From positions 48,685 through 112,684 of IMG/VR virus record IMGVR_UViG_3300020171_000017: DNA of 64,000 bases. One strand, 5' to 3'. The notes beneath the pieces were generated by a model. That model ran no database searches. It was not told the DNA's origin and saw only the letters and a list, made by a program, of their open reading frames with translations. The stretch comes from a virus. Lineage: Duplodnaviria; Heunggongvirae; Uroviricota; Caudoviricetes. The stretch's first letter is position 1, and each line of letters opens with the position of its first letter. This document shows, piece after piece, positions 22,131 through 64,000 of this stretch. The position numbers and the translations under genes are program-made.

Positions 22131-22372
22131 TTAAAATCCTTTCTTTTTAATGCCCAATTAGAATATCAGACTCCAATTATTTTTCGTTGTAGGCGAAGTG
22201 CCATAACCAATTAGGCGAACAGGGCAAAATTTCACGTGCAGAGAGTTAAACTTTGCAACTTAATTAATTTATAGAGCCATTTTTGCAATGATCAATTGCT
22301 ATTCACAACTCAAAAATAAAAAAAGTCAGGCACTCAATTGGTATGCATCCCTTATGCCTACGCTAAATTAAA

Positions 22373-22772
22373 GTGGATCTGGTGGGAATCGAACCCACGT
22401 CCTAAAATATCCAAATATAAAACCCTACATACATAGCTTATTATTTTCACCTTTACATTAATGATTGAATAAGCACGATCATCAATGTGCAAATCTTTAT
22501 TTGATTACTTCTATCGCAAAGATTAATCAATAGAATTAGCATAATAAATGACCTTCTTTAGCTCTTATGCCGAACTGAAGAAGGTGCTTTACCTAAATTT
22601 AGGCAAAGACTGGGTCCCCAGCAAAGATAGGTGCTACAATATCTTCAGCCGAAGCTAATAACCGCTGATTTTCGTCTGCGTTTATTTTTGTGCAAGATTT
22701 TTTACACAGCCAACTTGCGTCTGTGATATGCGTTTTATATTCGACCTATTTCAGTCTAACCCGATCAGACCC
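22373..22772 (-). ncRNA. ssrA: tmRNA-like (ssrA-like) gene, tentative
   Basis: ~400 nt without ORF; 5' GGGTCTG pairs with 3' CAGATCC adjacent to T-arm GTGGG-TTCGATT-CCCAC; internal ...AAAAAUAAAC GCA GAC GAA AAU... resembles canonical resume region, open tag frame ADENQRLL...VFA-UAA. Confidence 0.45.
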
Positions 22773-22801
22773 AAATATATTCAAAGAACAGTGTTAAATA
22801 G

Positions 22802-22888
22802 CTGTGGCGGTTGGATTCGGACCAACAATGAGAATTTCTTCTAATAGCTTAACAGGCTATCCCCTGCAACCAATTCGGGTACACCACA
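22802..22888 (-). tRNA. type-II-like tRNA (87 nt, long variable arm), identity unresolved (anticodon loop CUGUUAA)
   Basis: acceptor TGTGGTG/CGCCACA, anticodon stem ATAGC/GCTAT, variable-arm hairpin AGAA-GAAA-TTCT, T-arm GTTGG-TCCGAAT-CCAAC. Confidence 0.4.
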
Positions 22889-22893
22889 ATATC

Positions 22894-23124
22894 TTATTTT
22901 TTTCTATCTTCCATTAATTCACCAATAAACAATATTATATCACTTAAACAATCTTTATTCCAAATAGTATCATAATTTGGAAAGAATGCGTAACATCTCC
23001 AATTCACGTACCATTTTATAATCCCTAACCGATCACTGTGCATCTTCGACACCACTTCATAAACATTTGTTTTTTCTTTCTTCTCTAAAAGATTAAATGT
23101 TAAGTATTTTGATTGCATATTCAT
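22894..23124 (-). CDS. hypothetical protein (76 aa)
   Basis: small ORF, minus-strand operon. Confidence 0.3.
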   Translation of the reverse strand: MNMQSKYLTFNLLEKKEKTNVYEVVSKMHSDRLGIIKWYVNWRCYAFFPNYDTIWNKDCLSDIILFIGELMEDRKK

Positions 23125-23345
23125 CTCCGTTTAATATCAGAATAATAATAAATATCAATAAGCATAGCAACTACTGTGTAATATAATTCTTCTTGTGTGT
23201 TTATATCTAATTTTTTAAAAATATGTTTGAGGTTCTCTCTAGTATATTTTGGGATAGCACACAAATTGTCTATGGCATCAATATCTTCATATTTAATTTT
23301 TAATAATTTATGCACATAATTCCAATCTTTGAATTTTTTCTTCAT
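23121..23345 (-). CDS. hypothetical protein (74 aa)
   Basis: start/stop overlap with downstream gene. Confidence 0.3.
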   Translation of the reverse strand: MKKKFKDWNYVHKLLKIKYEDIDAIDNLCAIPKYTRENLKHIFKKLDINTQEELYYTVVAMLIDIYYYSDIKRR

Positions 23346-23359
23346 ATATCTTTTATTCT

Positions 23360-23436
23360 TGGTGCCACGACTCAGTGTCGAGCTGAGATCTCTGCGCCTT
23401 CAACGCAGCACTTTTGACCAGTTAAGTTATCGTGGC
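23360..23436 (-). tRNA. tRNA-Phe (GAA), CCA encoded
   Basis: acceptor GCCACGA/TCGTGGC-A-CCA, D-stem ACTT/AAGT, anticodon stem CTGCG/CGCAG loop TTGAAGG, T-stem CTCAG/CTGAG. Confidence 0.7.
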
Positions 23437-23715
23437 GTACATCTTATCAATTACCAACTGCATCTTCTGCCTCACAGAAGCGTTATCAGTTACTAAAACT
23501 ATTTCTTCAGGCAGATATTGTTGGTTTTGCTCTAACCAACAAAGTATATCATAACCTGTATATTCTTTGCCGTTATAGAAATCAGCCAAATCATGATCTA
23601 AGAGAAGGAGATTATATGGTTGTGATTGCAACGCCAATACGCCCTCAATATAAGACCTTGCTGTATGGGTCGCTACTTCTAAATTTCTTTTGTCATCAAT
23701 TAATAGTATGTTCAT
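23422..23715 (-). CDS. stand-alone response-regulator receiver (CheY-like) domain protein
   Basis: MNILLIDDKRN...LLLLDHDL...GYDIL pattern typical of REC domains; 97 aa. Confidence 0.45.
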   Translation of the reverse strand: MNILLIDDKRNLEVATHTARSYIEGVLALQSQPYNLLLLDHDLADFYNGKEYTGYDILCWLEQNQQYLPEEIVLVTDNASVRQKMQLVIDKMYATIT

Positions 23716-23745
23716 TTTTTATACAACTCCTTGTATGGTTTTAAA

Positions 23746-23817
23746 AGCCCCAATCGGGATTTGAACCCGAACCTTCTCGGTGGAAACGAGATATGCTGCC
23801 AAAAACACTTTTGGGGC
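23746..23817 (-). tRNA. tRNA-Gly (UCC)
   Basis: acceptor GCCCCAA/TTGGGGC, anticodon stem TCTCG/CGAGA loop TTTCCAC, T-loop TTCAAAT. Confidence 0.7.
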
Positions 23818-23833
23818 GTTGTTATTCTTTTAA

Positions 23834-23905
23834 AGCCCCCTGACAGATGTGCGCTGTCCTGTCAAGTTTACAAAACTTGTCCTTCGCTGTCTAAGGTTAG
23901 GGGGC
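23834..23905 (-). tRNA. tRNA-Thr (UGU)
   Basis: acceptor GCCCCCT/AGGGGGC perfect, anticodon stem CAAGT/ACTTG loop TTTGTAA, T-stem GACAG/CTGTC. Confidence 0.65.
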
Positions 23906-23924
23906 AGTCTTAACTTAATATCAG

Positions 23925-23995
23925 AGCCAAAGACGAGAATTAAACTCGTGCCTGAACATTGGCAATGTTCGATACTATCACTATACGACTTTGGC
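23925..23995 (-). tRNA. tRNA-Gly (GCC)
   Basis: acceptor GCCAAAG/CTTTGGC, anticodon stem GAACA/TGTTC loop TTGCCAA, T-arm ACGAG-TTTAATT-CTCGT. Confidence 0.6.
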
Positions 23996-24140
23996 ATATA
24001 TTCAGTCGAGCAGTACGATTCACACGTAACTTTTTGCACTACGGCAAACTTGCTGTATCTATTACCCTAATGCCTTGAGCCAATTCCCGGGATGCTCGGC
24101 ACCTACTCTTATAGATTTACAACACTGCTCGGATTTTCAG

Positions 24141-24214
24141 TGGAGCTGGAGCGAGTTGAACGCTCACTTATATTGATTGCAAAGCAATTGCCTTCCCAAT
24201 TAGGCAACAGCCCC
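24141..24214 (-). tRNA. tRNA-Ala (UGC), probable
   Basis: acceptor GGGGCTG/CAGCTCC (G3-U70 wobble), D-arm GCCT-AATTGGGA-AGGC, loop TTTGCAA, T-arm GAGCG-TTCAACT-CGCTC. Confidence 0.5.
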
Positions 24215-24218
24215 ATAT

Positions 24219-24692
24219 TCATTCATTTTCAATTATATGATACACAACTTCTTTACCTAATTTTCTAGCTTCTTTCGCTGTCCAACATGCACCAGATTTC
24301 ATATGATCATTAGTATGACAATGGTAACATTTATTAAATCGCATGCCATTATATCCTTTAGGATATTTATCAACTAAAATTACATGTAATATGTCTGAAT
24401 CTTTAGCAATATCTAAATTACGTTGTTTAAAACCATATTCAGCGTCCCAAATATTTTGTTTTGGGATTTTAAGATCTAATAAAAATCCAAGCCGCTTCGA
24501 TTCTTCTTCCCCATAAATGTCTATACCACCTACAGGTGAATGACCTGAAACAAAATAAATAGGTTCTATTTTTTTATTTTTTAAACAATTTAAAGAAAAA
24601 TCAATTAAAATACTTGTGAGTAATTCTTTAGCTTCTATTTTACTTTTTTCAGTGAATTTATCCTCACCATGACCTATTATGCCTATTTTCAT
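24219..24692 (-). CDS. Rossmann-fold protein (SLOG/LOG/DprA-like?), function unknown
   Basis: MKIGIIGHGED...YFVSGHSPVGGIDIYGEE pattern. Confidence 0.35.
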   Translation of the reverse strand: MKIGIIGHGEDKFTEKSKIEAKELLTSILIDFSLNCLKNKKIEPIYFVSGHSPVGGIDIYGEEESKRLGFLLDLKIPKQNIWDAEYGFKQRNLDIAKDSDILHVILVDKYPKGYNGMRFNKCYHCHTNDHMKSGACWTAKEARKLGKEVVYHIIENE

Positions 24693-24706
24693 AGTTCCTT
24701 TCTTAG

Positions 24707-24789
24707 TGCGTGCTGATGGATTTAAACCACCGAATCCCGAAGGAACCCGCTCTACAGGCGAGTGCGATTAGTCTCTCTGCCAAGCACGC
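24707..24789 (-). tRNA. tRNA-Tyr (GUA), type II
   Basis: acceptor GCGTGCT/AGCACGC, anticodon loop CTGTAGA, long variable arm TCC-TTCG-GGA, T-stem GGTGG/CCATC. Confidence 0.65.
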
Positions 24790-24798
24790 ATAATTTTT

Positions 24799-24872
24799 GG
24801 GTGGATAACGAGAAATCGAACTCGCTCCTAAAGAGCCACAATCTTCCGTGCATCCTCTACACTATATCCACC
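24799..24872 (-). tRNA. tRNA-His (GUG) with encoded G-1
   Basis: G-1 opposite discriminator C73, acceptor GTGGATA/TATCCAC, anticodon stem GAAGA/TCTTT loop TTGTGGC; T-arm slightly atypical. Confidence 0.6.
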
Positions 24873-24877
24873 ATATT

Positions 24878-25396
24878 TTATTCATTCTCAATCCCCAAGT
24901 ATTTGCACCACAATTCGTGAATAAATCCTAACTTCATTTTTAAGATCATCTTAAACCCATGTGGTTTAGTTGGTATTTTTAACAACTTCATACCTGCTTC
25001 TTTTGGTGTTCTATTATCTTTAATACCATTACAAATATTACATGCCGTCGTACAATTTTCCCAAGTTGTTTTCCCGCCCTGAGATTCTGGCAAAACATGG
25101 TCTATAGTCAATTTTCTAGGCTCGAATTTCACGCCGCAATACGAACAAGTAAAATTATCGCGAATATGTATATTATGTTTTGAGTAAGAAACAAAAGCTA
25201 TTTTTTCAAACGCTACTCGCACATATCGTTTCAATCTTATGACTGCAGGAATTTTCATAGTAAGTGAAACACTATGTACCTCCTGCTCATAAGAGGACTC
25301 AAGAATAGCTTTTTCTAAATAAATTAAATTAATAGATGATTGCCAACTACAAAACCCAAGGAACGTAAAATCTTGATTCAAAATTAAGACACGCAC
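24878..25396 (-). CDS. HNH endonuclease
   Basis: CSYCGVKFEPRKLTIDHVLPESQGGKTTWENCTTACNICNGIKDNR = HNH/McrA-type motif. Confidence 0.65.
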   Translation of the reverse strand: MRVLILNQDFTFLGFCSWQSSINLIYLEKAILESSYEQEVHSVSLTMKIPAVIRLKRYVRVAFEKIAFVSYSKHNIHIRDNFTCSYCGVKFEPRKLTIDHVLPESQGGKTTWENCTTACNICNGIKDNRTPKEAGMKLLKIPTKPHGFKMILKMKLGFIHELWCKYLGIENE

Positions 25397-25399
25397 TTC

Positions 25400-26155
25400 T
25401 TACCCTTTCCTTTCTTTCCAAAACTCTTCTAATAACTCTATTTGTAATTTATTTATCGCTTCTTGATCAGCACCATATTGTAAATCTGATTGCACATATG
25501 CCAAATCAACTAATTTCTCTATCTCTTCAGCTTTATTCAATACCCAAGTCAAATCATATTTACCTAATTTCACATCCCGTACTAAATTATGCTGCGGTAA
25601 TGGAAATGTTAAAGCCTTTTCAGTTAATAATTGGAGACATTCTAACAAAAGCCTAATCAAATGGGATCCGAACTTAACATCATATCCAAACTTTAATGCT
25701 AATTCTTTTCTACCTGTCATATTATCACGTTTAATTTCTAACTTTTCTCTTTGCGAATACGAGTATCCTTTAAAAGTATGATACGCTTTTTTAGACAAAA
25801 ACAAATGCCTATTCTCAATCAATTTATTAGCAAACTTATCTCTATATAATACGCAATTTTCTGGTACATAAAGGAACTCTATAACATTGGGATTATTTGC
25901 CATTGCTAATGGTATAAATTTCGTTAACGCATAGACCATATAATCAGTATCGCCTTTTTGATTACGAACCGATTTAGAAATCTTCTCAGACAACTCAACT
26001 TGTTCTACATTTTTAATACCTAGTACATAGTCTTTATCAGGTATGAATATGCCGCCTAAATCTTCGTCTGAAGTTTCTGTTCTCGTCCCATATAAATTCG
26101 AGCCGATTCTGATTTTATATATCGTATTTCGTAACGCCATATCTCGTTCTTGCAT
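25400..26155 (-). CDS. Pol-beta-superfamily nucleotidyltransferase
   Basis: IGSNLYGTRTETSDEDLGGIF = GS-x10-SD-x-D NTase signature followed by ~150-aa helical domain. Confidence 0.55.
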   Translation of the reverse strand: MQERDMALRNTIYKIRIGSNLYGTRTETSDEDLGGIFIPDKDYVLGIKNVEQVELSEKISKSVRNQKGDTDYMVYALTKFIPLAMANNPNVIEFLYVPENCVLYRDKFANKLIENRHLFLSKKAYHTFKGYSYSQREKLEIKRDNMTGRKELALKFGYDVKFGSHLIRLLLECLQLLTEKALTFPLPQHNLVRDVKLGKYDLTWVLNKAEEIEKLVDLAYVQSDLQYGADQEAINKLQIELLEEFWKERKG

Positions 26156-26172
26156 GTTTATAATCCTTTTAG

Positions 26173-26258
26173 TTAGGCGAGGCAGAGTCGAACTGCCGTT
26201 TCCACCCCTACAAGTTGCAACTTTACGGGTGACGACTTACCGTTAGTCGATCAGCCTA
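26173..26258 (-). tRNA. tRNA-like gene, type-II size, unusual expanded anticodon region
   Basis: T-arm GGCAG-TTCGACT-CTGCC, acceptor AGGC(T)GA/TCGCCT with one bulge, D-arm CGAC-TAACGGTAA-GTCG; stem CACCC/GGGTG encloses 19 nt containing palindrome AAGTTGCAACTT. Confidence 0.4.
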
Positions 26259-26266
26259 AATTTTTA

Positions 26267-26341
26267 TCGGCACAGGAAGACTCGAACTTCCACTATTCAT
26301 CGCCCCAAACGATGCGGTCTACCAATTTGACCAATGTGCCG
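26267..26341 (-). tRNA. tRNA-Pro (UGG)
   Basis: C1-G72 acceptor CGGCACA/TGTGCCG, D-arm GGTC-AAATTGGTA-GACC, anticodon stem CATCG/CGATG loop TTTGGGG, T-arm GGAAG-TTCGAGT-CTTCC. Confidence 0.7.
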
Positions 26342-26686
26342 TTATATCTTTTTATTTCTTCCTAATTTTTTATCAATTTCTAACCTATCAAAACCGTAAT
26401 ATTTATCACCCTTAATAAATGAAGTAGAATTCGATAGATAGACAAGAGAAGATAATAAACTACGTAATTCACAAAATAAACCTTCACTTATATCAAGTTT
26501 TTTACCAATATCAGATTTATCTAAAAATATCTTTAAAGTATTTACAATCACTCTAAATCTTTCTTCAGTTTTAATAGGCAGTACAAATGCCTCATCTATA
26601 GCGTAACCTAGTGCATGAATCTCTTCTGCCTCATCTTTATCGAGTTTCTCACTATCAATATGAATTAATCTAACCTCATCTTTCAT
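26342..26686 (-). CDS. hypothetical protein (114 aa)
   Basis: ORF ends one base from tRNA-Pro; minus-strand operon. Confidence 0.4.
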   Translation of the reverse strand: MKDEVRLIHIDSEKLDKDEAEEIHALGYAIDEAFVLPIKTEERFRVIVNTLKIFLDKSDIGKKLDISEGLFCELRSLLSSLVYLSNSTSFIKGDKYYGFDRLEIDKKLGRNKKI

Positions 26687-26710
26687 TTCTTCATCTCCAT
26701 TTAAAGTAGT

Positions 26711-28288
26711 TCATAATTTATCTTTATTCTGTTCTCTAAATTCTTTCAATTCCTTATCCCGCCTTTCTTCGATTTCTTTAGGAAAGCCACGATTTAAACA
26801 TCTTGGGCAAGCAGCTTCTTTTGTTTTGTTTTTAGGGTCTTGCGTAGTTTGAATATAACCACTACATATTATAACTTCATCCGCAATATAATTTTTGCAC
26901 AATTTTCTAGAAACATAATAACTACACTTTTCCCAATCTTCTTTTTTCATTTTTTCATCTCCATTTTTTTCTTCTACCCACTTCAGATACACTTCTTCAT
27001 TCTCACCTAACTTCAGTTCACCATTAATCACTGCATTTAGCACCATCTCTTTAATCTCACCTACCTGCCTTACCTGACCGAGATTAAAATATCGCATAAT
27101 GGCGTTACCATTTAAGGGCGATTTTGGTGATTCTTTAAAGTTTCGTTGTTCTTCAATACGGCGTTTGAGATCCATGAGAGAATCTAAATGCTTTTTGATT
27201 GAAACGGGATTGTGAGAAGTTATGTCACTTTCACTCAATTGCAATAATTTTCCACAATATTCTCCAGTTTCAAAAATAAAACGCCTAACAGCACTATCTG
27301 AAAAAGATTCGGTGTACGTATTAACACGCATATGATTTTTCACCAGGTATGTGATATCTTTTATCATTTTAGTTGGTAGACCTAATCGCTGTAAGATTGA
27401 GTAAGTCATCCGAGATCCGATTTCATCGTGATCATAAAAATGTATTTTACCATTCTCATTAGAGAAGGTACATTGCTTTCCAATATCGTGAAATAATGCA
27501 CTAAAACGAAGTACTAAATCTTTTGGAGTATTCTTTACAACATCAATTGTATGGAGTAAAGCATCTTTATGGTGAAACTCACTTTCTTGTTTTATAGATT
27601 TTAATGCTACTAATTCAGGTATAAAATAATTTATAAGCCGATACTCAAATAAATCATTGAGAGCAAGATCGACATTATCGGTCATTAATATTTTGTTTAC
27701 TTCGTCTAAAATCCTTTCTTTTGGCAAAATTAACAAACGTTTTGCGCATGATTTTAATGCCATTTTCACTTCTTCACTATATTCAAAACCTAACTTCGCT
27801 CGAAAGCGCACGGCGCGGATTAATCTTAACGGATCGTCAGCGAAAGATTTTCCTGCCTGTATAGGTGTAGAAATTATTTTATTCTTAAGGTGCTCTACGC
27901 CCCCAAATAAATCCTTGATTTCCCTCTTACTATCTAAGCACAAACAATTAATTGTGAAATCCCTTCTATGCAGATCATCCTCTATTGTTTGTCCCCACTC
28001 GACTACGGGGTTCCTATTACTTCGTTGATAAGATATATCCCGCCTATATGTCGTGCACTCCACCTTATATCCATCCACTATCGCACCTACAGTCCCGAAC
28101 GCTATGCCTACGGTGTAAGTTTTATACCCCGCCTTCTGCAATATCTCTAAAGTAACTTCAGGCACGCAGGAAACCGCGAAATCTAAATCTTGAGTTTCGA
28201 GACCTAAAAGTTGATCCCTGCACGCACCGCCGACTAAATATATAGAGTGACCATTCTTACTAAATAACTCAAATATTTTATTTTTCAT
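26711..28288 (-). CDS. cca: tRNA nucleotidyltransferase (CCA-adding enzyme) with HD phosphohydrolase domain
   Basis: GGACRDQLLGLETQDLDFAV head motif; HD motif HHKDALLHT...FSALFHDIGK; 525 aa. Confidence 0.8.
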   Translation of the reverse strand: MKNKIFELFSKNGHSIYLVGGACRDQLLGLETQDLDFAVSCVPEVTLEILQKAGYKTYTVGIAFGTVGAIVDGYKVECTTYRRDISYQRSNRNPVVEWGQTIEDDLHRRDFTINCLCLDSKREIKDLFGGVEHLKNKIISTPIQAGKSFADDPLRLIRAVRFRAKLGFEYSEEVKMALKSCAKRLLILPKERILDEVNKILMTDNVDLALNDLFEYRLINYFIPELVALKSIKQESEFHHKDALLHTIDVVKNTPKDLVLRFSALFHDIGKQCTFSNENGKIHFYDHDEIGSRMTYSILQRLGLPTKMIKDITYLVKNHMRVNTYTESFSDSAVRRFIFETGEYCGKLLQLSESDITSHNPVSIKKHLDSLMDLKRRIEEQRNFKESPKSPLNGNAIMRYFNLGQVRQVGEIKEMVLNAVINGELKLGENEEVYLKWVEEKNGDEKMKKEDWEKCSYYVSRKLCKNYIADEVIICSGYIQTTQDPKNKTKEAACPRCLNRGFPKEIEERRDKELKEFREQNKDKL

Positions 28289-28290
28289 TT

Positions 28291-28716
28291 TTAGAATAAA
28301 AGATTTTGTTCTAACGCTAAATTATATATGTCTTGCATAGGAATTCGACAAAAATTAGGTATTTCTCTAAATTCGTACATAGAAGAATAGATTAACTGAA
28401 TAGCTTCAAATAACCCCACATTTCTCGCAATTAAAGCTAAAAGAGCTATATGTGGACTTCTAGTCACACAACATTGACAATGTATAAATATATCATCAGT
28501 CCCTTTTAACTTTTCATATAATTCATATAAAGGAATATTCATTTTATATAAACTATCACCATCTTTGTAATCTATTTCAATATCGTTATTTCTAAGCATA
28601 CTACATCTTTGATCTGGGTAATCATTTCGCCATATGTGGATTGTTCGCATAATTGAATTACAACATGATTCTTTGTCCCCTAACCAAATATTTTTATTTA
28701 GATAAATTTTTTTCAT
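28291..28716 (-). CDS. cysteine phosphatase (dual-specificity/PTP-like P-loop)
   Basis: IHCQCCVTRSP matches HC-x5-R-S/T catalytic loop; 141 aa. Confidence 0.5.
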   Translation of the reverse strand: MKKIYLNKNIWLGDKESCCNSIMRTIHIWRNDYPDQRCSMLRNNDIEIDYKDGDSLYKMNIPLYELYEKLKGTDDIFIHCQCCVTRSPHIALLALIARNVGLFEAIQLIYSSMYEFREIPNFCRIPMQDIYNLALEQNLLF

Positions 28717-28988
28717 TTTAAAAATAGCTCATGCATTTCTATCTTCCAATCTTTAATTTCATCGAAACTATCAAAACATATTGGATACATTCTGCTATCA
28801 CCTTCTTTTTTTATGCACCAGAAACCTTTGTTCCAACCGCTTTTAATTATCATTTTAGGCGAAAGCTGAAAGTCTGTCTTTCTTACTGATTCAGACACAA
28901 TTAATGTAGTGCCTACTAATTGAAAGTCTGCTGGTAAATCTTTAATTTTAATAGTTTTCATTTCGGGACCTTTCTTTTTGGCTACCAC
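28713..28988 (-). CDS. hypothetical protein (91 aa)
   Basis: overlapping stop/start with phosphatase gene. Confidence 0.35.
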   Translation of the reverse strand: MVAKKKGPEMKTIKIKDLPADFQLVGTTLIVSESVRKTDFQLSPKMIIKSGWNKGFWCIKKEGDSRMYPICFDSFDEIKDWKIEMHELFLK

Positions 28989-29053
28989 ATAAGGATCCGA
29001 TCCTTAATCTTCAGCTTCAGAGGCTGACGAATTACCAGTTATTCGATGTGGTA
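28982..29053 (-). tRNA. tRNA-Gln (CUG)
   Basis: U1-A72 + discriminator G73 (Gln identity), anticodon stem TCAGC/GCTGA loop CTCTGAA, T-stem TAAGG/CCTTA. Confidence 0.7.
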
Positions 29054-29056
29054 ATA

Positions 29057-29251
29057 TTATACAATATAATGCACAAAAGCTTCTATTTTGCCACAATCAC
29101 ATCGATGCATAATTTCATATTGCACATCAAAAAGATATTCATCTAATTTTGCAATAATCTTTTCTAAATGAGAGTGGTTTTTAGCTTTAATCCAACATCC
29201 TGAACGTTCTGTCATTTTTAATCTCCAATCATAGCTACGGGAGATGAGCAC
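29057..29251 (-). CDS. hypothetical protein (64 aa, Cys/His-containing)
   Basis: small ORF between tRNAs. Confidence 0.3.
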   Translation of the reverse strand: MLISRSYDWRLKMTERSGCWIKAKNHSHLEKIIAKLDEYLFDVQYEIMHRCDCGKIEAFVHYIV

Positions 29252-29306
29252 GATTCATCATTAACAGCTTCAAAGGCTGCTTGCCTACCTATTAGCAGAT
29301 CCCGTA
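29235..29306 (-). tRNA. tRNA-Gln (UUG)
   Basis: U1-A72, G73, anticodon stem GCAGC/GCTGT loop CTTTGAA, T-stem GATGA/TCATC (non-canonical T-loop ATCGTGC). Confidence 0.6.
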
Positions 29307-29312
29307 ATTCTG

Positions 29313-29385
29313 TGGGTGCAGAAAGCCTTAAACTTTCAATCTATCGGGTAAGAACCAATTGCTTTATCAATTAAGCTATGCACCC
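29313..29385 (-). tRNA. tRNA-Lys (CUU)
   Basis: acceptor GGGTGCA/TGCACCC, D-arm GCTT-AATTGATA-AAGC, anticodon loop TTCTTAC, T-arm GAAAG-TTTAAGG-CTTTC. Confidence 0.6.
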
Positions 29386-29398
29386 GTTATTTCCTTAA

Positions 29399-29469
29399 TG
29401 AGCGTACCAGAATTCGAATCTGGATAGACACATTAAAAGTGTGTTAATCTGCCCTTGATTTATACGCCC
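29399..29469 (-). tRNA. tRNA-Lys (UUU)
   Basis: acceptor GGGCGTA/TACGCTC, anticodon stem ACACA/TGTGT loop CTTTTAA, T-arm CCAGA-TTCGAAT-TCTGG. Confidence 0.7.
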
Positions 29470-29481
29470 GTTAACTATTAG

Positions 29482-29555
29482 AGGCGATAACTGGATTCGG
29501 ACCAGTGATTGTACTGTTTTGCAGACAGTTCGATTAGCCACTCTCGCACACCGCC
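29482..29555 (-). tRNA. tRNA-Cys (GCA)
   Basis: acceptor GGCGGTG/TATCGCC (two G-U), discriminator U73, anticodon stem ACTGT/ACAGT loop CTGCAAA, T-arm ACTGG-TCCGAAT-CCAGT. Confidence 0.6.
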
Positions 29556-29562
29556 ATAACCT

Positions 29563-29901
29563 TCAATACAACGCCCAACCGCTGCCTTTTTCTTTTCTTG
29601 GTTTACTGCCTTTACCGCCAGATTTTGTGTTATATGTATCGTTATTTTCTATAAAATCTCGGTTAACCAATTCTTGCTCTTTATTCTCCATATCTATTTT
29701 GTTGTTATAGATAAACAAGATCTCTTTCTTAAAGTTATGTATGCCATAATATTTATGGGCATTTTTCATTGTGATGCCAGAACCTTTGTAATCGTCATTT
29801 ACATCTTCGGTCGCATGCTTACCGATGTATATCTTGCTGTTAATCAGATTTGTGATCTTATAGACTATGTAGTATGTCATAATATTTTTAAGCACAGGCA
29901 C
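29563..29901 (-). CDS. GIY-YIG homing endonuclease (stand-alone catalytic domain)
   Basis: YIVYKITNLINSKIYIGKH ... R ... E ... N motifs of GIY-YIG; 112 aa; embedded in tRNA array. Confidence 0.7.
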   Translation of the reverse strand: MPVLKNIMTYYIVYKITNLINSKIYIGKHATEDVNDDYKGSGITMKNAHKYYGIHNFKKEILFIYNNKIDMENKEQELVNRDFIENNDTYNTKSGGKGSKPRKEKGSGWALY

Positions 29902-29946
29902 CAGGACTTTAACCTAGGCCAACTGTTCCAATATTCTTCAACATTA

Positions 29947-30021
29947 GCGCCTCCTGTCGAATTTAAATCGACGATATCTTGATCGACAATCAAGTGCATT
30001 GAATCGCTATGCTAAGGAGGC
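29947..30021 (-). tRNA. tRNA-Asp (GUC)
   Basis: acceptor GCCTCCT/AGGAGGC, G73, D-arm GCAT/ATGC, anticodon stem CTTGA/TCAAG loop TTGTCGA, T-stem GTCGA/TCGAC. Confidence 0.7.
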
Positions 30022-30031
30022 AATTTTCAAG

Positions 30032-30102
30032 TGACGCTACGGGGAATTGGACCCCGACATTCTGGTCGAAAGCCAGATATACTGCCTTTATATGATAGCG
30101 CC
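30032..30102 (-). tRNA. tRNA-Glu (UUC)
   Basis: acceptor GGCGCTA/TAGCGTC, anticodon stem TCTGG/CCAGA loop CTTTCGA, T-stem CGGGG/CCCCG. Confidence 0.65.
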
Positions 30103-30349
30103 ATAAAAACAAAAAAACCGATTCAGTTTTAGTAGTTCGTAGCTTTTAATCTATGCTGCTGATTGCTACTTACTACTTTGTTGAGTCGGTATAATTCGCA
30201 ATCAGCACAGATAGTTTAGGCATAATGCCTGTCGAACATAAAAAGGCTCTATGCCAAAACTTGCGGTTTTGGTTCGGCGTTTCTTGTATCTGTTCTGGCG
30301 TTTTATGTTGTAACATTTTCTATGCTTTCGTTACGATGTGAAATTTTAG

Positions 30350-30421
30350 TAGCGGGTTACGAAATCGAATCGTATTAAAGTTGGTTATGAGCCAACCAAG
30401 ATTCCAAACCTTCCACCCGCA
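30350..30421 (-). tRNA. tRNA-Met (CAU) with unpaired 1:72 (U.U)
   Basis: acceptor (T)GCGGGT/ACCCGC(T), D-stem AAGG/TCTT, anticodon stem GTTGG/CCAAC loop CTCATAA, T-arm TACGA-TTCGATT-TCGTA. Confidence 0.55.
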
Positions 30422-38390: not shown

Positions 38391-38660
38391 CTATATTTCC
38401 AATATCCTTTTACAAATCTCGCTATCAATCTTTTTATTTTCTTTAAACCTTATTAACAATAGTTGCAATATACGATCCCAATCTTTATAGCAAGAACTAC
38501 AAACGCCGAATTGTATATTCTTAATGACAATCGAATAGAAACCTAATGTTAGATCATCAGTAGCTGTAAGTATCATTTCTTGTTCTAGTTTAGAATCACA
38601 AATATAGCAGATCATTTCTGTGTATCTCCGTAGTAAGTTGCTATTGCCAAAGCAGACCAC
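38391..38660 (-). CDS. Cys-rich zinc-finger protein (89 aa)
   Basis: CYICDS...CSSCYKDW. Confidence 0.35.
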   Translation of the reverse strand: MVCFGNSNLLRRYTEMICYICDSKLEQEMILTATDDLTLGFYSIVIKNIQFGVCSSCYKDWDRILQLLLIRFKENKKIDSEICKRILEI

Positions 38661-39070
38661 ATATCTTTTGAAATTCCATATAACATACCAGGATTTTTTT
38701 TTGTGCCTGGTTCACCGAAACGATCAACAAGCACTTGCCTGATATTAGAATCTTTTGCTTTCATACTATTGCAATGATGAATTTTCACATCTTTACGATA
38801 TACTAAAACTGGATTTTTATCTTGATACGCATGTAAGAATTTACCGATCCACAAAAGAGTTTCAAATACACTTTTACCAACCGCCATGCCGTAACAAGCA
38901 ATCATCTCGACGGGCATTAAGTAAGTTGCTACCTTGTCTTTACCTAATATTTCAATTTTTTTCAACAATTCGGCATTAGGCACAATTCCTTTATCTAAAA
39001 GTAAATTATTCTTATGATCCCAAATTACAAACGCACTTTGTTCAGATCCAGGGTCGATTGCGAAAATCAT
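38612..39070 (-). CDS. RuvC-like Holliday junction resolvase
   Basis: N-terminus MIFAIDPGSEQSAFVIW (RuvC motif I), 152 aa. Confidence 0.6.
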   Translation of the reverse strand: MIFAIDPGSEQSAFVIWDHKNNLLLDKGIVPNAELLKKIEILGKDKVATYLMPVEMIACYGMAVGKSVFETLLWIGKFLHAYQDKNPVLVYRKDVKIHHCNSMKAKDSNIRQVLVDRFGEPGTKKNPGMLYGISKDMWSALAIATYYGDTQK

Positions 39071-39250: not shown

Positions 39251-39278
39251 ATTATGCGCCTTTCTTTGCCTTAAAATG

Positions 39279-39377
39279 AACAACAGGTCATTGCCTGTTG
39301 TGCCACACCTTACCGGACCATACCAAACCTCACAGGGCCCTACCACACCACACCTTACCCCACCCAACCTCACCATA
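39279..39377. repeat. intergenic repeat copy 1: 9-bp hairpin + ~70-nt CA-rich tract
   Basis: AACAACAGG-tcattg-CCTGTTGTG then caccttaccggaccataccaaacctcacagggccctaccacaccacaccttaccccacccaacctcacca. Confidence 0.6.
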
Positions 39378-39586: not shown

Positions 39587-39777
39587 TTTCTTCTCGCTAT
39601 AGTCGCTGGCTCTTCTCCATTGACATGCGAATTAGAAATTCTACATTCGTTACAAATACGGTTTTTTATCCTATCATTAGATAGAAATTTCTTTCTGCAT
39701 TTTAAACAAGGTATTTTTATATAACTAGTATCATTTCGACGACCTGGCACAATATTTCTCCTCTTTTAATTAAATTA

Positions 39778-39888
39778 ACAACAAGTCATCGCTTGTTGTG
39801 CCATACCCCACTACACAGGACCTCACCCCACCGCACCTCACCATACCTGACCGAACTTTAATTAACCATACCTCACCACATTCTTTAA
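39778..39888. repeat. intergenic repeat copy 2: hairpin + CA-rich tract
   Basis: AACAACAAG-tcatcg-CTTGTTGTG then ccataccccactacacaggacctcaccccaccgcacctcaccatacctgaccg...cctcaccac. Confidence 0.6.
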
Positions 39889-39906
39889 ATAATTAAGAAT
39901 TAAACC

Positions 39907-40005
39907 AACAACAAGTCATTGATTGTTGTGCCTTACCGCACCAAACCGCACCGTGCACGACCTAACCGAACCTCACCACACCATACCCCACCGCACCAAA
40001 CCTTA
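39907..40005. repeat. intergenic repeat copy 3: hairpin + CA-rich tract
   Basis: AACAACAAG-tcattga-TTGTTGTG then ccttaccgcaccaaaccgcaccgtgcacgacctaaccgaacctcaccacaccataccccaccgcaccaaacc. Confidence 0.6.
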
Positions 40006-41406: not shown

Positions 41407-41631
41407 TTTTTATTCTCCTTTTTTTGTATTATTGTTGTTTAACTTTAATCCCGCCCTTTTTAATCAAATCATCACGTTTTATTTCTTCGGCTGACTTCTT
41501 CGTCCATTTACCATCTTTTCCTTTATGCCAACCAGCACCCTCGGCGGCTGACCATGCAGTAGCAGAACATATATATCGGTACTGAAACACGCACATTAAT
41601 CATAAAAAAAACGACAAGGAAACTCACACAT

Positions 41632-42651
41632 TTATGTGTGCAGAGGAATTGTCGTCCTCCAGTAATTATAAGAAAGAAATACTAAATCCTTCTTATCTAT
41701 GTTTTGAGCTAATCGTTCTCCTGTCTCTAAATTATGCACACTTAATCTATCTTTACTACTGCCACCGACATAACAAATACCGTATTTAGGATGTGTTACA
41801 AGGCTGCCGCGTTTTAATCCAAGTGACATTGTGCTGCCATAATCTTTTCTTATGCCGCCTTTTGAGAAATTAAAACGATGAAGTTGCCTCCTGTGAAACT
41901 GAATTGGAATTAATCTTGTAATTTCTTTGTTTTCTGGAACAGTACCACCTCGCACTGAACTCCAAGCCAATGACCAAGAGTCCACATTGTGCGCGGAAAA
42001 AATTTCGGCTGATTTATTACCTGTCTTTATAAGTCCTAACTCCTGTCTTATTTGGTATGTATCGTAACCAGATTTTAATTCTACTTTTGCAATTTTTTCA
42101 AGTTCTTTATAGAACCACTTCTTACCGACTTCGAGTGGAGAAAAAGATGTATTCCATCTTTTAGCGTTCTTAAATGTAGGTGCTTTTATATCTTCTACTA
42201 CAAATGTCTTAATAGGAAACAACTTCGCGAGAATGACTGCAATCCTTAACTTCGCCTGCCAACGTGCTTTTGTACTTGGTGCTAAAAAGGTTGTTTGAGA
42301 TCTATTGTTTTTATTCTTCCTGCATGGAGTTGTCCTATATCTCCGTACTTTTCTCGCGTTTCTCCTTGTTTCTACCGCTTCTTTTACCCATGAAACAGAA
42401 TTACTTAAAATGTTTAAGTAAGTATGTAATTCTGATTTCACCGTGAACGCTTCTCTCTTGCTGCCAGGATCGATTCCTACCACAATGTCCTGCGTTACAC
42501 CATCAGTACGCTGGATTAACTTGATATAAAAAATCCCAGCCTTGAAACGGCGTTTTGCTCTGTTCTTTTTTATCAGTTCGTTCGCGCGATAATTATTAGT
42601 CGGCATTAATGGTTTCCCTGTCGCGCTGATCACTGGTACAGACTTCTGCAT
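41632..42651 (-). CDS. isrB: IsrB-like RNA-guided nickase homolog (HNH-less IscB; PLMP domain + split RuvC)
   Basis: N-terminal GKPLMPT (PLMP motif), RuvC-I VVGIDPGSKREAF, Arg-rich bridge-helix-like RRNARKVRRYR, ~340 aa, no HNH. Confidence 0.6.
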   Translation of the reverse strand: MQKSVPVISATGKPLMPTNNYRANELIKKNRAKRRFKAGIFYIKLIQRTDGVTQDIVVGIDPGSKREAFTVKSELHTYLNILSNSVSWVKEAVETRRNARKVRRYRTTPCRKNKNNRSQTTFLAPSTKARWQAKLRIAVILAKLFPIKTFVVEDIKAPTFKNAKRWNTSFSPLEVGKKWFYKELEKIAKVELKSGYDTYQIRQELGLIKTGNKSAEIFSAHNVDSWSLAWSSVRGGTVPENKEITRLIPIQFHRRQLHRFNFSKGGIRKDYGSTMSLGLKRGSLVTHPKYGICYVGGSSKDRLSVHNLETGERLAQNIDKKDLVFLSYNYWRTTIPLHT

Positions 42652-42889
42652 TTATTACTCCTTATTATTTAGTTAAGTTACCCTAACCTTACTACAATTT
42701 CTCCCATCCACACTGACTCTCAGAGAGGAAAAGAACTTGGGAAGCATTCTTTACATCTTTTCGAGCTACCACGCTCAGAGAATTCAGTTACTAGCTGTGT
42801 AGTCAATTGTTTAACCTGCTAAGATGATTGGTCTTCTCTTTCGCAAGCCCCTATTTTTAAATAGGGGTTATTGACTTCTCCTTTCTTTT
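42652..42889 (-). ncRNA. candidate omega-RNA of IsrB copy A
   Basis: 238-nt ORF-free region immediately upstream of isrB, conserved 5' segment in copy B, perfect hairpin GCCCCTATTTTTAAATAGGGGT. Confidence 0.35.
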
Positions 42890-43279
42890 CTATATTCCTT
42901 CAGGTATTGTCTTTACTTCTTTTTTCTCGGTCTTAAATTTATAGGTGCATTTATTTGCTATTTTTAAATAAACTAAATCACTAGGTATCGGAAAGTGCCT
43001 GCAAGGTATTGAATATTTTAAGAATATGGGGTTAAAATCTGAATCTATAGCTGGAAAGAAATATTTGATTTTAGAAAAGGAATGTGAATATCTTGATTTA
43101 AAAACATATAAATGTAAAATATATAATAGAAGACCAATACAAGGTTGTCTACTTTCGCTATTCACAATCGAGAATCTACAACATGCGCCTTTGCATTTTT
43201 TAGAGTTACATTTACCAATCCTATTGTATTTTTTCGCTACTTCTTGTGGGTTTGAATATTCTACACAATCTATTCTCAT
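42890..43279 (-). CDS. hypothetical Cys-rich protein (129 aa)
   Basis: ORF. Confidence 0.35.
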   Translation of the reverse strand: MRIDCVEYSNPQEVAKKYNRIGKCNSKKCKGACCRFSIVNSESRQPCIGLLLYILHLYVFKSRYSHSFSKIKYFFPAIDSDFNPIFLKYSIPCRHFPIPSDLVYLKIANKCTYKFKTEKKEVKTIPEGI

Positions 43280-61081: not shown

Positions 61082-61285
61082 CTATTTCGTCACCCAAAAT
61101 ACAGGGTAATATCCTTTTGCCATCGCGTCATTTAATTCTTCTTCTTGATCTTTAGTCAATTCTATTTCACCATTAAACGTCGTACCGCTATGAAAATCGC
61201 CTAAAGTCAAATCTATGCCATTAGCAGTAGAATAGACACTTTCACCATTTTTCTGCCAATCTTCGAAAACTAATTTAATTTTCAT
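61082..61285 (-). CDS. hypothetical protein (67 aa)
   Basis: small ORF. Confidence 0.3.
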   Translation of the reverse strand: MKIKLVFEDWQKNGESVYSTANGIDLTLGDFHSGTTFNGEIELTKDQEEELNDAMAKGYYPVFWVTK

Positions 61286-61321
61286 GATTAATAACTCCTT
61301 TCTATTTTAGGAAATATATTA

Positions 61322-61816
61322 TTAAATATCAAACAATGATTTTAATTTTTTTTCTACTGTAACAATAGTATCATTTTTACTTCCACCATGAGGCACTAAT
61401 AAAATTTCCAACATTTCAAATCCTCTGTTTTTTCCTAACCCCATTGAGTTCCAGCCAAAACAAATTGCTATACCTCCAGGTTTTAATATTCTCACAATTT
61501 CATTTTTACAATCTGCCCAATATTTCATAGAACCAAATTCTTTTTTACCATACATTTTTGCTTGAGTAATTGAATATGGCGGATCATATAAACAACCATT
61601 ATAATAATTACTTGTTTGAAATTTTAAAAAACGTAAAGCATCAAAATTATACCCCGCTTTTTCTATAATATCATTAGTTACTTTCGCGGGAGAATTTCTG
61701 CCTGCAAAGGGATCACACCATATTCCTTCCATACAATAACGGTTTAATAATTTTTTAATTGGTTTAATCGTAAATGTCCAACGATTTGGCATTGCCCATA
61801 TTCTATTTATTTGCAT
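61322..61816 (-). CDS. DNA methyltransferase (beta-class order: FxGxG then DPPY)
   Basis: WCDPFAGRNS ... LYDPPYSI motifs; 164 aa. Confidence 0.6.
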   Translation of the reverse strand: MQINRIWAMPNRWTFTIKPIKKLLNRYCMEGIWCDPFAGRNSPAKVTNDIIEKAGYNFDALRFLKFQTSNYYNGCLYDPPYSITQAKMYGKKEFGSMKYWADCKNEIVRILKPGGIAICFGWNSMGLGKNRGFEMLEILLVPHGGSKNDTIVTVEKKLKSLFDI

Positions 61817-61875
61817 TATTTTTTTTGTAATCTGTATCTTTTTTTTAATTCAATATCTGTTAAATTAAAATCCAT

Positions 61876-62175
61876 TTAATAACTCCTTTCTAATGAAGCT
61901 ATCGTTGCCTCATTCATTCTACAATTATAACATAGGCATTTGCAGTTGTATTCAACACAAAACTTAACTTCTTTATCACTATGGCAATTGTCGCAAAGTT
62001 TAGTTTTTAACTTTAAGCAATCGTCGCAATGGCCGTGTTTAATTGATTCAGGGCAAACAGGCAGTTCTTTTAAATCTGTTTTTTTAACTTTGTTACCACA
62101 GAATTGGCAGAAATTAGAATAATTAGGCAGAATTTTATTGCATTTTGAACAAACGTAAGCGGTAGGATTACGCAT
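61876..62175 (-). CDS. Cys-rich zinc-finger protein (99 aa)
   Basis: multiple CxxC pairs. Confidence 0.35.
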   Translation of the reverse strand: MRNPTAYVCSKCNKILPNYSNFCQFCGNKVKKTDLKELPVCPESIKHGHCDDCLKLKTKLCDNCHSDKEVKFCVEYNCKCLCYNCRMNEATIASLERSY

Positions 62176-62334
62176 TTTTATTTTTCCTTTTTTAATTCAA
62201 CATCACTTAAACTAAAATCCATAATAGCACCGCTTTCTTTTAATCTAACCGTGACTCAGAAGACAGATCTATGGATTACCCTACCAGTTAAAATCACAAT
62301 ATCATCTTTTTTAATTTCTTTTGGCATTTTTATT

Positions 62335-62568
62335 TTAATCGTAAACAAATCTGCATTTAACAACCACTTCTTGTCCTTTTTCAAAAGAATGATATCCTGC
62401 TATAATATAAGATCCTTTATCTGTAACAACTAACATTTTATTTGATTCATTAAAAGCTGTTGGTATTGGTGTTACACTAATAAATTTTCCAAGGTTACAT
62501 TCAAGATCTTTAAAAGAACAACTACTCAATAAAAATACGATTAATATAATCAACATTATTTTTTTCAT
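62335..62568 (-). CDS. lipoprotein (77 aa)
   Basis: signal peptide + lipobox LLSSC. Confidence 0.4.
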   Translation of the reverse strand: MKKIMLIILIVFLLSSCSFKDLECNLGKFISVTPIPTAFNESNKMLVVTDKGSYIIAGYHSFEKGQEVVVKCRFVYD

Positions 62569-62728
62569 TTTTATCCTTTCTTAATTAGTAAGGCAGTGTT
62601 GGTAGTTGATCTGCGAATAAACGAATAGATTTATTAGCTCTTGGTGCTAACTTCACCATTTTGTATAGGCATTTTAATCCAACATTTTATTCAGGTTATC
62701 ACACCACAACACCGCCTTATTACCTTTT

Positions 62729-62953
62729 CTAGATTAAACTTTTCTCGTCGATTTCTTCGATTTCAACTAAAGCTAATTGCCTTTGATACTCTAAAATAGA
62801 TTTTTGTGCGGTTGCAATGTATGTTTGCTGGGCAATAATTCCTTGAAGTATAGATTTTATTCTTGTTTTCACTTGAGCTTCTTTTTCCGCTCTTAATTCA
62901 GCGATTACCTCATTTTTTAATTCATAAAAAAAACGGCAAGGAAACTCACACAT
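62729..62953 (-). CDS. coiled-coil protein (74 aa)
   Basis: small ORF. Confidence 0.3.
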   Translation of the reverse strand: MCEFPCRFFYELKNEVIAELRAEKEAQVKTRIKSILQGIIAQQTYIATAQKSILEYQRQLALVEIEEIDEKSLI

Positions 62954-64000
62954 TTATGTGTGTAGAGGAATTGCCGTCCTCCAATAATTATAAGAAAGAA
63001 ATACTAAATCCTTCTTATCTATGTTTTGAGATAATCGTTCTCCTGTCTCTAATTTATGGACACTTAATTTATTATTACTACTGCCTCCGACATAACAAAC
63101 ACCGTATTTAGCGTGTGTTACAAGACTGCCTCGTTTTAGTCCAAGTGACATTGTACTACCGTAATTTTTTCTTATGCCTCCTTTCGAGAAATTAAAATAA
63201 TGAAGTTGTCTCCTATGAAACTGGAGAGGGATTAATCTTGTAATTTCTTTGTTCTCTGGAATAGTATTACCACGCGCCAAACTCCAAGCTAACGCCCAAG
63301 AATCCACATTGTGCGCGGAAAAAACTTCAGCTGATTTATTCCCTGTTTTTACAAGCCCTAGTTCCTCCCTTATTAAATATGTATCATAACCAGATTTCAA
63401 TTCTACTTTCGCAATTTTCGCGAGTTCGTTATAGAACCACTTTTTACCTACTTCTAAAGGAGAAAAAGATATGTTCCATCTTTTAGCATTCTTAAATGTA
63501 GTTGCTTTTATATCTTCTATTACGAATATCTTGATAGGAAATAACTTCGCGAGAATGACCGTAATCCTTAATTTCGCCTGCCATCGTGCTTTTGTGCTAG
63601 GCGCTAAAAAAGTTGTTTTCGATCTGTTGCTTTTGTTTTTTCTACATGGTGTAGTCCTATTTCTTCTTGTTCTTCTCGCATTTCTCCTTATTTCTACTGA
63701 TTTTTTTACCCATGAAACAGAGTTACTTAAAACATTCAAGTAAGTATGTAATTCTGATTTCACCGTGAATGCTTCTCTTTTGCTGCCAGGATCGATCCCT
63801 ACCACAATGTCCTGCATTACACCATCAGTACGCTGGATTAGTTTGATATAAAAAATCCCTGCTTTGAAACGGCGTTTCGCTTTGTTCTTTTTTATCAGTT
63901 CGTTCGCGCGATAATTCGTAGTCGGCATCAATGGTTTCCCTGTCGCGCTGATTACTGGTACAAACTTCTGCATTTGTTACTCCTTACTATTTAGTTAAGT
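62920..64000 (-). mobile_element. IsrB-type IS element, copy B (truncated by window end)
   Basis: 339-aa ORF ~94% identical to copy A; same 3' hairpin with compensatory change (ACGGCAA/TTGCCGT vs ACGACAA/TTGTCGT); upstream 27 nt match copy A leader. Confidence 0.55.
62954..63973 (-). CDS. isrB: IsrB-like protein, copy B
   Basis: GKPLMPT, VVGIDPGSK, RRNARRTRRNR; 339 aa. Confidence 0.6.
   Translation of the reverse strand: MQKFVPVISATGKPLMPTTNYRANELIKKNKAKRRFKAGIFYIKLIQRTDGVMQDIVVGIDPGSKREAFTVKSELHTYLNVLSNSVSWVKKSVEIRRNARRTRRNRTTPCRKNKSNRSKTTFLAPSTKARWQAKLRITVILAKLFPIKIFVIEDIKATTFKNAKRWNISFSPLEVGKKWFYNELAKIAKVELKSGYDTYLIREELGLVKTGNKSAEVFSAHNVDSWALAWSLARGNTIPENKEITRLIPLQFHRRQLHYFNFSKGGIRKNYGSTMSLGLKRGSLVTHAKYGVCYVGGSSNNKLSVHKLETGERLSQNIDKKDLVFLSYNYWRTAIPLHT

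Follow-up and report, generated by a model that had tools for sequence, protein, structure and literature searches.

The stretch of DNA analyzed here, called the window below, consists of 64,000 nucleotides (64 kb) of the IMG/VR record IMGVR_UViG_3300020171_000017 and is part of a 135.5-kb source contig. It belongs to a tailed phage, with genes for a tape measure protein, a baseplate protein, a primase-helicase and a CCA-adding enzyme, 18 transfer RNAs (tRNAs) and a transfer-messenger RNA (tmRNA). On its minus strand, on which all the neighboring genes also lie, the window carries a complete non-autonomous ISC1/IsrB element of the IS200/IS605 superfamily, 1,272 bp long, with genes for the protein IsrB and for an omega-RNA. 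An earlier note, made from the letters alone, had proposed such an element in a phage at 41585-42890. The setting and the location are borne out, while the limits have to be corrected, since that range takes in the 16-nucleotide guide (42876..42891) at one end and ATGA (41600..41603) with part of a neighboring open reading frame (ORF) at the other.

The element and its protein

The ends of the element are set by five independent insertions: copy 1 and copy 2 of the window (the latter completed by contig L001) and three further insertions (L163, L164/165, and L166), with proteins 80-89% identical, which were used for the boundary alignment. Across the five, homology starts at GTYAAT and stops at a T-run preceding RTGA, and the flanks are unrelated on both sides. 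Copy 1 thus has the termini 5'-GTCAAT ... T-run-3', and in the upstream alignment of copy 1 and copy 2 identity begins exactly at GTCAAT (42875), which is position 1 of the RNA scaffold and of its model. Read 5' to 3' on the minus strand, a 16-nucleotide flank (the guide) is followed by a scaffold of about 180 nucleotides starting with GUCAAU, a Shine-Dalgarno sequence, isrB, a structured 3' end and the flanking ATGA (Table 1). Insertion is site-specific and leaves no target-site duplication: the tetranucleotide next to the element is ATGA in four of the five insertions and GTGA in L163, and what lies beyond it is unrelated. Subterminal hairpins are found at both ends, the 5' one (42848-42867) at 8 nucleotides from the end and the 3' one with two stems that covary in 37 loci. 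These features are those of ISC1-1_MA, which has 5'-GTCA, insertion between N and ATGA with no duplication, and subterminal hairpins (PMC4810608, Kapitonov et al. 2016). As in that element and other ISC1 elements (IscB1), the window element is non-autonomous, its only protein lacks HNH, and the hairpins at its ends are imperfect. The ATGA and GTGA flanks fit the target of ISC1-1_MA and also NTGA, the target-adjacent motif (TAM) of IsrB as cited in PMC11237433.

Table 1. Positions of the element, its parts and flanks, and its second copy in the window
Feature	Position	Strand	Description
ISC1/IsrB element, copy 1	41604..42875	-	omega-RNA gene, isrB and 3' terminal structure
Guide segment	42876..42891	-	5'-AGAAAAGAAAGGAGAA-3'; flanking phage DNA directly 5' of scaffold position 1
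Omega-RNA scaffold core	42697..42875	-	covariance model R1, 150.4 bits
First scaffold hairpin, perfect 8-bp	42848..42867	-	RNA CCCCUAUU-UAAA-AAUAGGGG; DNA arms CCCCTATT/AATAGGGG
Leader, 3' part	42652..42696	-	small hairpin AAGGUUA-GGG-UAACUU; Shine-Dalgarno sequence AAGGAG, 7 nucleotides before the isrB ATG
isrB gene, 339 amino acids	41632..42651	-	PLMP, RuvC-I (D61), arginine-rich bridge helix, RuvC-II (E153), RuvC-III (H221/D224), C-terminal domain; no HNH
3' terminal structure	41604..41660	-	outer 7-bp stem, internal loop, inner stem-loop, U8
Mini-ORF, 11 codons	41596..41631	-	MCEFPCRFFYD and stop; runs through the 3' hairpin; read from sequence
ATGA	41600..41603	-	target-site/TAM tetranucleotide directly 3' of the element; flank, not element
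Reconstructed element-free junctions			AGAAAAGAAAGGAGAA joined to ATGATTAATG; ...ATAGGTACTT joined to ATGAATTAAA
Copy 2, cut by the window end	62926..64000+	-	isrB 62954..63973; ATGA 62922..62925

The protein of 339 amino acids carries all the motifs that had been read from its translation: GKPLMPT (residues 12-18), VVGIDPGSK (residues 57-65) followed by ETRRNARKVRRYRTTPCRKNKNNRS, and an arginine-rich bridge helix (ETRRNARKVRRYR, residues 94-106). Its only Pfam match is RRXRR (PF14239, E 3.9e-28; residues 5-157), inside which the PLMP motif lies, and no Pfam family for an HNH domain matches it. Among 31 homologues, L15, M16, and P17 of the PLMP motif are invariant or nearly so. R100, R103, R104, and R106 of the bridge helix are invariant, and so are the residues of the split RuvC site, D61 (GIDPGSK), E153 (VEDI), and H221/D224 (AHNVDSW), whose segments align with those of the IsrB of Desulfovirgula thermocuniculi (DtIsrB, structure 8DMB). 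This structure is the closest one by sequence (E 1.6e-35), the alignment running contiguously over residues 5-296. The structures of IscB rank after it (E 1e-6 or weaker, N-terminal part only), and the NCBIfam profile guided_IscB aligns only at model positions 3-157 of 314, that is, in the N-terminal half that precedes the HNH domain. An AlphaFold (AF2) model built from the 31-sequence alignment (pLDDT 78, pTM 0.73) gives the same picture: with Foldseek its top match is 8dmb_P (E 1.4e-25, TM-score 0.73/0.75), with IscB structures next. The modeled fold, including a probable C-terminal beta-rich domain like the one that interacts with the TAM, matches IsrB overall; a helix is predicted at residues 88-104, in the bridge-helix region, and the loops of low confidence are at residues 106-120 and 252-274. 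RuvC resolvases match the protein only at E ~1e-3, over some 200 alignment columns. In both sequence and fold, therefore, the protein has the IsrB architecture of the OMEGA family that had been proposed, and it groups with IsrB and not with unrelated RuvC-fold resolvases. It is an IsrB that lacks the HNH domain and whose RuvC active site is intact.

The complex of DtIsrB and its omega-RNA, a characterized OMEGA nickase, is among the closest known systems. Both proteins consist of PLMP, split RuvC, bridge helix and C-terminal TAM-interaction domain, in this order, with neither HNH nor REC. The omega-RNA gene lies upstream in both systems, with the guide at its 5' end, and the candidate TAM of the window, ATGA, fits the NTGA published for IsrB. 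As for differences, the two proteins share no more than 27% identity when aligned by structure, the window leader is shorter (224 nucleotides), and the element resides in a phage and is known here from sequence. Lacking the HNH domain, the window protein should be a nickase and not a double-strand cutter. It is predicted to nick the non-target strand in dependence on guide and TAM, and the prerequisites for this are present in the sequence.

The omega-RNA and the 3' structure

Between the isrB ATG and the stop codon of the upstream gene lies a leader of 238 nucleotides (42652..42889), 224 of which separate the first base of the scaffold from the ATG. No ORF of at least 40 amino acids is found in it on either strand, and the perfect 8-bp hairpin described by the earlier note is present. 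That this leader encodes an omega-RNA, which the note had suggested, is now supported by comparison. Around 160 loci encoding IsrB proteins of 44-62% identity were collected from IMG/VR and metagenomes, and according to nhmmer the window leader is homologous to the sequence upstream of isrB, on the same strand, in approximately 100 of them. A covariance model, R1, was built from 32 other IsrB leaders, with the window's own copies excluded. The family structure comprises 46 pairs, 32 of which have compensatory changes; 92.1% of the cells are paired, vs 71.5% in shuffled alignments and 32-42% when the partners are slid. In the window R1 finds a single match, which covers the model from end to end (positions 1-182 of 182, E 1.7e-33). 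The RNA of copy 2 scores 153.5 bits (L001 581..759), and 80 IsrB loci of IMG/VR give 82 matches of 34-165 bits, mostly ending just upstream of isrB. The leader is thus far more than a chance hairpin.

The first scaffold hairpin is helix 2 of the family structure (compensatory changes in five of six pairs, 93.7% of cells paired), and at the DNA level the same sequence is the subterminal hairpin of the transposon end. The closing helix, GUCAAU/AUUGAC, was missed by RNAalifold on the first MAFFT alignment and was entered as a constraint, upon which three of its seven pairs show compensatory changes. As regards a pseudoknot of the HEARO type, CUACA/UGUAG can pair in copy 1, yet no clear covariation could be seen by eye, and the candidate was dropped. 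The last part of the leader (42652..42696) aligns poorly across the wider IsrB family; in its small hairpin, the two copies differ by a G-U to A-U change. The Rfam family HEARO (RF02033), the omega-RNA of IscB, matches 42672..42875 of the minus strand (E 1.2e-5) and shares the 5' GUCAA helix and the first hairpin. The protein is homologous to IscB in its N-terminal half and devoid of HNH; the RNA is homologous to HEARO but belongs to an IsrB-type branch, which the IscB-based seed captures poorly.

At the other end of the element, the outer stem of the 3' structure is formed by 41649-41655 and 41611-41617 and encloses a conserved internal loop (UUCCUC / GUUUCC); the inner stem-loop (41625-41640) contains the isrB stop codon, and U8 occupies 41604-41611. 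The folding energy is -19.4 kcal/mol, and a simple terminator scan finds the inner stem only. The same layout recurs in 37 loci: an outer 7-bp stem, the loop TTCCTC / GYYYCC, an inner stem-loop, a spacer of 6-20 nucleotides, and ATGA or ATGG. In a test anchored on the conserved loop motifs, the outer stem formed 5.97 of 7 pairs with its own partner vs 3.31 of 7 with the partners of other loci, and none of 10,000 permutations reached as high a value. The loci had been chosen by a regular expression (TTCCTC-like, GYYYCC, RTGR), a choice that biases how often the motifs occur (ATGA in 31 of 37, for example) but not the complementarity of the stem. Column-wise pair counts on the 3' end alignment A7 were discarded, as MAFFT had shifted the register. 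The compensatory change between the two copies noticed earlier (ACGACAA/TTGTCGT vs ACGGCAA/TTGCCGT) is real; the refinement is that the structure is family-wide and not peculiar to these copies. The stop codon of isrB lies before, inside or after the structure depending on the locus, which explains why the aligned proteins vary in their C-terminal tails. The 3' hairpin is best read, then, as a conserved and covarying subterminal structure of the transposon end throughout the family, and it is terminator-like in the window's clade because the spacer there is U8.

A mini-ORF opens directly after the stop codon of isrB (TAAATG), and its own stop overlaps, within TAATG (41594-41598), the start of a 55-amino-acid ORF (41429..41596). 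In copy 2, the equivalent mini-ORF reads in frame into a truncated 69-amino-acid gene, giving a product of 74 amino acids (P0121). In L164, the equivalent is terminated by the TGA within ATGA, and the ATG of this same tetranucleotide is the start codon of the next gene downstream (361 amino acids). From this reading of the sequence, the mini-ORF may serve translational coupling and may offset the polar effect of the insertion.

Guides, target sites and copies

The sequence 5' of the scaffold, homologous to nothing in the other copies, differs in all five insertions, as expected of the variable guide segment that the earlier note had proposed to look for. The copy 1 guide takes in part of the 129-amino-acid gene upstream, at its TAG stop codon, and the guide of copy 2 is AGCATTATAGGTACTT. 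A guide length of about 16 nucleotides was adopted from the literature on IscB and IsrB. Self-targeting would be avoided because the guide match at an occupied site adjoins GTCA and not NTGA. Within the window, the sole perfect match of the copy 1 guide is the guide itself, and the other NTGA-flanked targets found for both guides are only seed-level matches, at ribosome-binding sites. The TAM-proximal 9-10 nucleotides of the copy 1 guide (AAAGGAGAA) are the phage's own ribosome-binding-site consensus, and several gene starts read ...AAGGAGAA followed by ATGA (for instance, minus strand 55487 and 54237), with three to four distal mismatches to the guide; such gene starts are potential off-target or seed-only sites.

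An uninterrupted site is present in two related contigs, L170 and L171, where the syntenic sequence AAAGAAGAAAGGAGAA, followed by ATGA, agrees with the copy 1 guide at 14 of 16 positions, the 12 TAM-proximal ones being identical. Both contigs have the upstream gene with the CxxCxxCC motif, and L170 shares the downstream Cpn10 region, at 91% nucleotide identity. In the relatives L169 and L170, the CxxCxxCC gene and the Cpn10-like gene enclose three to six genes, including a deoxynucleoside monophosphate (dNMP) kinase. In the window (41429-41603, 42876-42895) these two genes are separated only by the IsrB element and the 55-amino-acid ORF, which corresponds to the C-terminal two-thirds of a 77-amino-acid gene of the relatives (L169, L170). 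Copy 2 lies in a deletion of about 180 bp between two ATGAATT repeats (62922-62953 and L001 496-580, compared with L167 3747-4210). Across the element, codon 28 of an 83-amino-acid gene is joined to codon 6 of a 69-amino-acid gene; the latter lacks its first five codons and is now opened, in frame, by an ATG that lies within the 3' end of the element (MCEFPCRFFY-ELKNEV...). A reading in which copy 2 interrupts one intact gene of 93 amino acids was rejected, the relatives having separate 83- and 69-amino-acid genes. Both IsrB insertions hence coincide with the loss of neighboring genes.

The isrB ORF of copy 2 is 88% identical to that of copy 1 in both nucleotides and amino acids. Its omega-RNA extends about 197 nucleotides past the window end; this part was taken from L001, a contig that agrees with positions 61251..64000 of the window at 100% identity. 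Between the two copies, the proportion of synonymous sites that differ (pS) is 0.36 and the ratio of nonsynonymous to synonymous divergence (dN/dS) is 0.118, and the scaffold is 96% identical, with an identity of 64% at synonymous sites. Against L163, either copy shows a pS of 0.46-0.50, a dN/dS of 0.07-0.09 and a scaffold identity of 93-95%. These values point to strong purifying selection on both protein and RNA in old paralogues, and the phage genome holds at least two old copies that are still under selection. By comparison, ISC copies within one bacterial genome are mostly 91-100% identical (PMC4810608, Table 1), whereas the copies compared here are 85-88% identical, with a synonymous divergence (dS) of 0.5-0.8. 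L163 itself, on contig k141_690246 from the window's sample (ERZ27247124), is a third IsrB copy (86.5% nucleotide identity) with GTGA instead of ATGA. It adjoins, directly upstream, a gene for a B12-binding radical SAM protein, and the GTG of its GTGA is in frame with that gene.

Regarding relatives, IsrB is common on viral contigs (101 matches in IMG/VR), and those of 80-89% identity lie on short metagenomic contigs, among which L166 carries neighbor genes homologous to genes of the window. In distant mode, blastn of the element against 50,697 GenBank phage records gave no match, so the phage genome has no sequenced close relative among those records. No cellular IsrB in 185,579 species genomes exceeds 59% identity; with all matches at or below this level, the scan gave no clue to the host.

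Interpretation and setting

The element belongs to a known kind of small selfish DNA, one that carries IsrB together with a guide RNA. Taking together its parts and ends, the family assignment of its protein and RNA and the purifying selection on both, it is very probably a non-autonomous ISC1-type insertion sequence (IS) in a tailed phage, encoding the RNA-guided nickase IsrB and its omega-RNA. The most likely function would be the RNA-guided nicking of element-free alleles, which would promote homing or retention. Read-through transcription from the upstream phage genes on the same strand would yield the omega-RNA; IsrB would bind it and seek DNA that pairs with the guide and has NTGA next to it. 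Both would be found together only in an element-free allele, either the donor joint that excision leaves behind or the uninserted site of a related phage in co-infection, and there IsrB would nick the non-target strand. Repair of the nick from an element-bearing genome, in the course of phage replication or recombination, would restore the element or spread it (homing), possibly with co-conversion of the flanks. True transposition would need a Y1 transposase (TnpA) in trans, acting on the two subterminal hairpins and inserting the element 5' of ATGA.

The homing step corresponds to a reviewed model for OMEGA systems, in which an element-free allele is cut or nicked and then repaired from the element-bearing genome (PMC13565253). 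The proposed route of allele cutting or nicking in co-infection, repair and flank co-conversion is also that of the free-standing or intron-encoded homing endonucleases of phages, nicking HNH enzymes included, and of TnpB and IStron elements (PMC13565253). It differs from homing endonucleases and IStrons in that RNA, not protein, would recognize the target, there is no intron and the insertions are not spliced out. A more tentative extension, possible but doubtful, is that of a transposase-independent lineage of phage IsrB that would spread between co-infecting phages purely by RNA-guided, nick-induced homing, its copies being kept functional by selection. The neighboring gene losses or replacements would then be footprints of homing, either co-conversion or repair-associated deletion.

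Several observations weigh against reading the element as an RNA-guided homing IS. No TnpA is found in the element, nor among the 25 of 29 Pfam families listed for the 104 ORFs of the 64-kb window; an IS605/TnpA partner, as in the ISC1 setting, is thus not seen there. The copies are old, with no sign of recent movement in the genome of the window. The uninterrupted site of L170 and L171 is not a clean isogenic empty allele, since on both sides of its insertion the window also differs from those contigs in lacking genes. At the orthologous site of copy 2 in L167, seven of the 16 guide positions mismatch (counted by eye), and a guide scan of that site gave no match within five mismatches. On the side of the RNA, folding the leader as a single sequence gives no significant gain over shuffled sequences (z = -1.5), so its structure is visible by comparison only. 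The covariance search that the note had proposed is strongly positive with the IsrB-specific R1, and with the Rfam HEARO model it stays below the threshold (37.9 bits vs a gathering score of 83). Finally, the ends of the RNA, the length of the guide and the nicking itself are predicted from membership in the family.

Among the other explanations, the one that survives best, although it is improbable, is a domesticated IsrB, no longer mobile, with the phage keeping nickase and RNA for its own benefit, be it the exclusion of related phages or the stimulation of recombination. The long-term purifying selection on paralogous copies within one genome, the lack of a transposase among the Pfam families listed, and the match of the copy 1 guide to a related phage at 14 of 16 positions, followed by the TAM, would all be in keeping with it. 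However, both transposon ends are intact and conserved, including the 3' structure, and the guides are whatever DNA flanks each insertion, which is the configuration of a mobile element and not of a dedicated target. Mechanistically this explanation overlaps with homing, and the sequence alone does not separate the two.

Still less probable is a passenger IS, delivered from the host chromosome by a host TnpA and persisting passively, with no role for IsrB and omega-RNA in its upkeep. A trans-acting source is indeed needed with no TnpA seen in the window, both subterminal hairpins required by a Y1 transposase are present, and an insertion from host to phage at 5'-ATGA-3' has been published, that of an IsrB-like element into gp49 of cyanosiphophage Mic1 (PMC11237433). 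In both cases an IsrB-like ORF, preceded by about 200 bp and followed by a short tail, lies within a phage genome at ATGA. Nevertheless, the Mic1 insertion is a recent, host-derived, loss-of-function event in a laboratory phage population, while the window element is of an old lineage, under selection and present in at least two copies. A passive element should decay; here 36-50% of the synonymous sites differ, and yet dN/dS is 0.07-0.12 and the scaffold 93-96% identical. The distance to any cellular IsrB (at most 59% identity) and the relatives of 80-89% identity on metagenomic contigs, with window homologues beside L166, also speak against a passenger IS.

A phage RuvC-fold resolvase or nuclease with an unrelated structured 5' untranslated region is already refuted: RuvC folds do occur in this phage genome, as a separate small RuvC-like protein (38612..39070, MIFAIDPGSE...) attests, but the similarity of the protein to IsrB is full-length, against the marginal and partial one to resolvases, and the leader is shared with other IsrB loci according to both nhmmer (about 100 of 160) and the covariance model (82 matches across 80 viral loci).

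Other features of the window deserve brief mention. Between small minus-strand ORFs, a unit of about 81 nucleotides occurs in three copies that are 68-70% identical (39274-39354, 39772-39852, and 39902-39982); it consists of a hairpin (AACAACAGGTCATTGCCTGTTGT) and a run of ACCNN repeats with a period of five nucleotides, and has no match in Rfam. The 18 tRNA genes and the tmRNA (22373-22772) are grouped at 21357-30421 on the minus strand, together with the gene for the CCA-adding tRNA nucleotidyltransferase (26711-28288). Directly after the tape measure gene, and overlapping its end, a protein of 458 amino acids with a C-terminal HNH endonuclease domain is encoded (6829-8205, plus strand), which may be a free-standing homing endonuclease. 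The window is also rich in genes for DNA modification and counter-defense, among them those for Dam-type, MT-A70, and N6_N4 methyltransferases, a Mom-family protein, a Tad2-like anti-Thoeris domain, a DNA polymerase III beta clamp and a radical SAM protein similar to spore photoproduct lyase.

What is known of the IsrB family is not changed by this element, as viral IsrB is common and one phage insertion had already been published. Its value lies in being a clean, fully delimited natural IsrB/omega-RNA element in a phage, with guide, scaffold, nuclease, structured 3' end and TAM, and in the presence of at least two copies that are anciently diverged and whose RNA evolves several-fold more slowly than synonymous sites. 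The proteins and RNAs are compact, AT-rich IsrB variants for the toolbox (339 amino acids and an RNA of roughly 200 nucleotides). With a related phage that carries a near-cognate, uninterrupted target, they would make a convenient system for the study of OMEGA nickases as RNA-guided homing endonucleases in the competition between phages.

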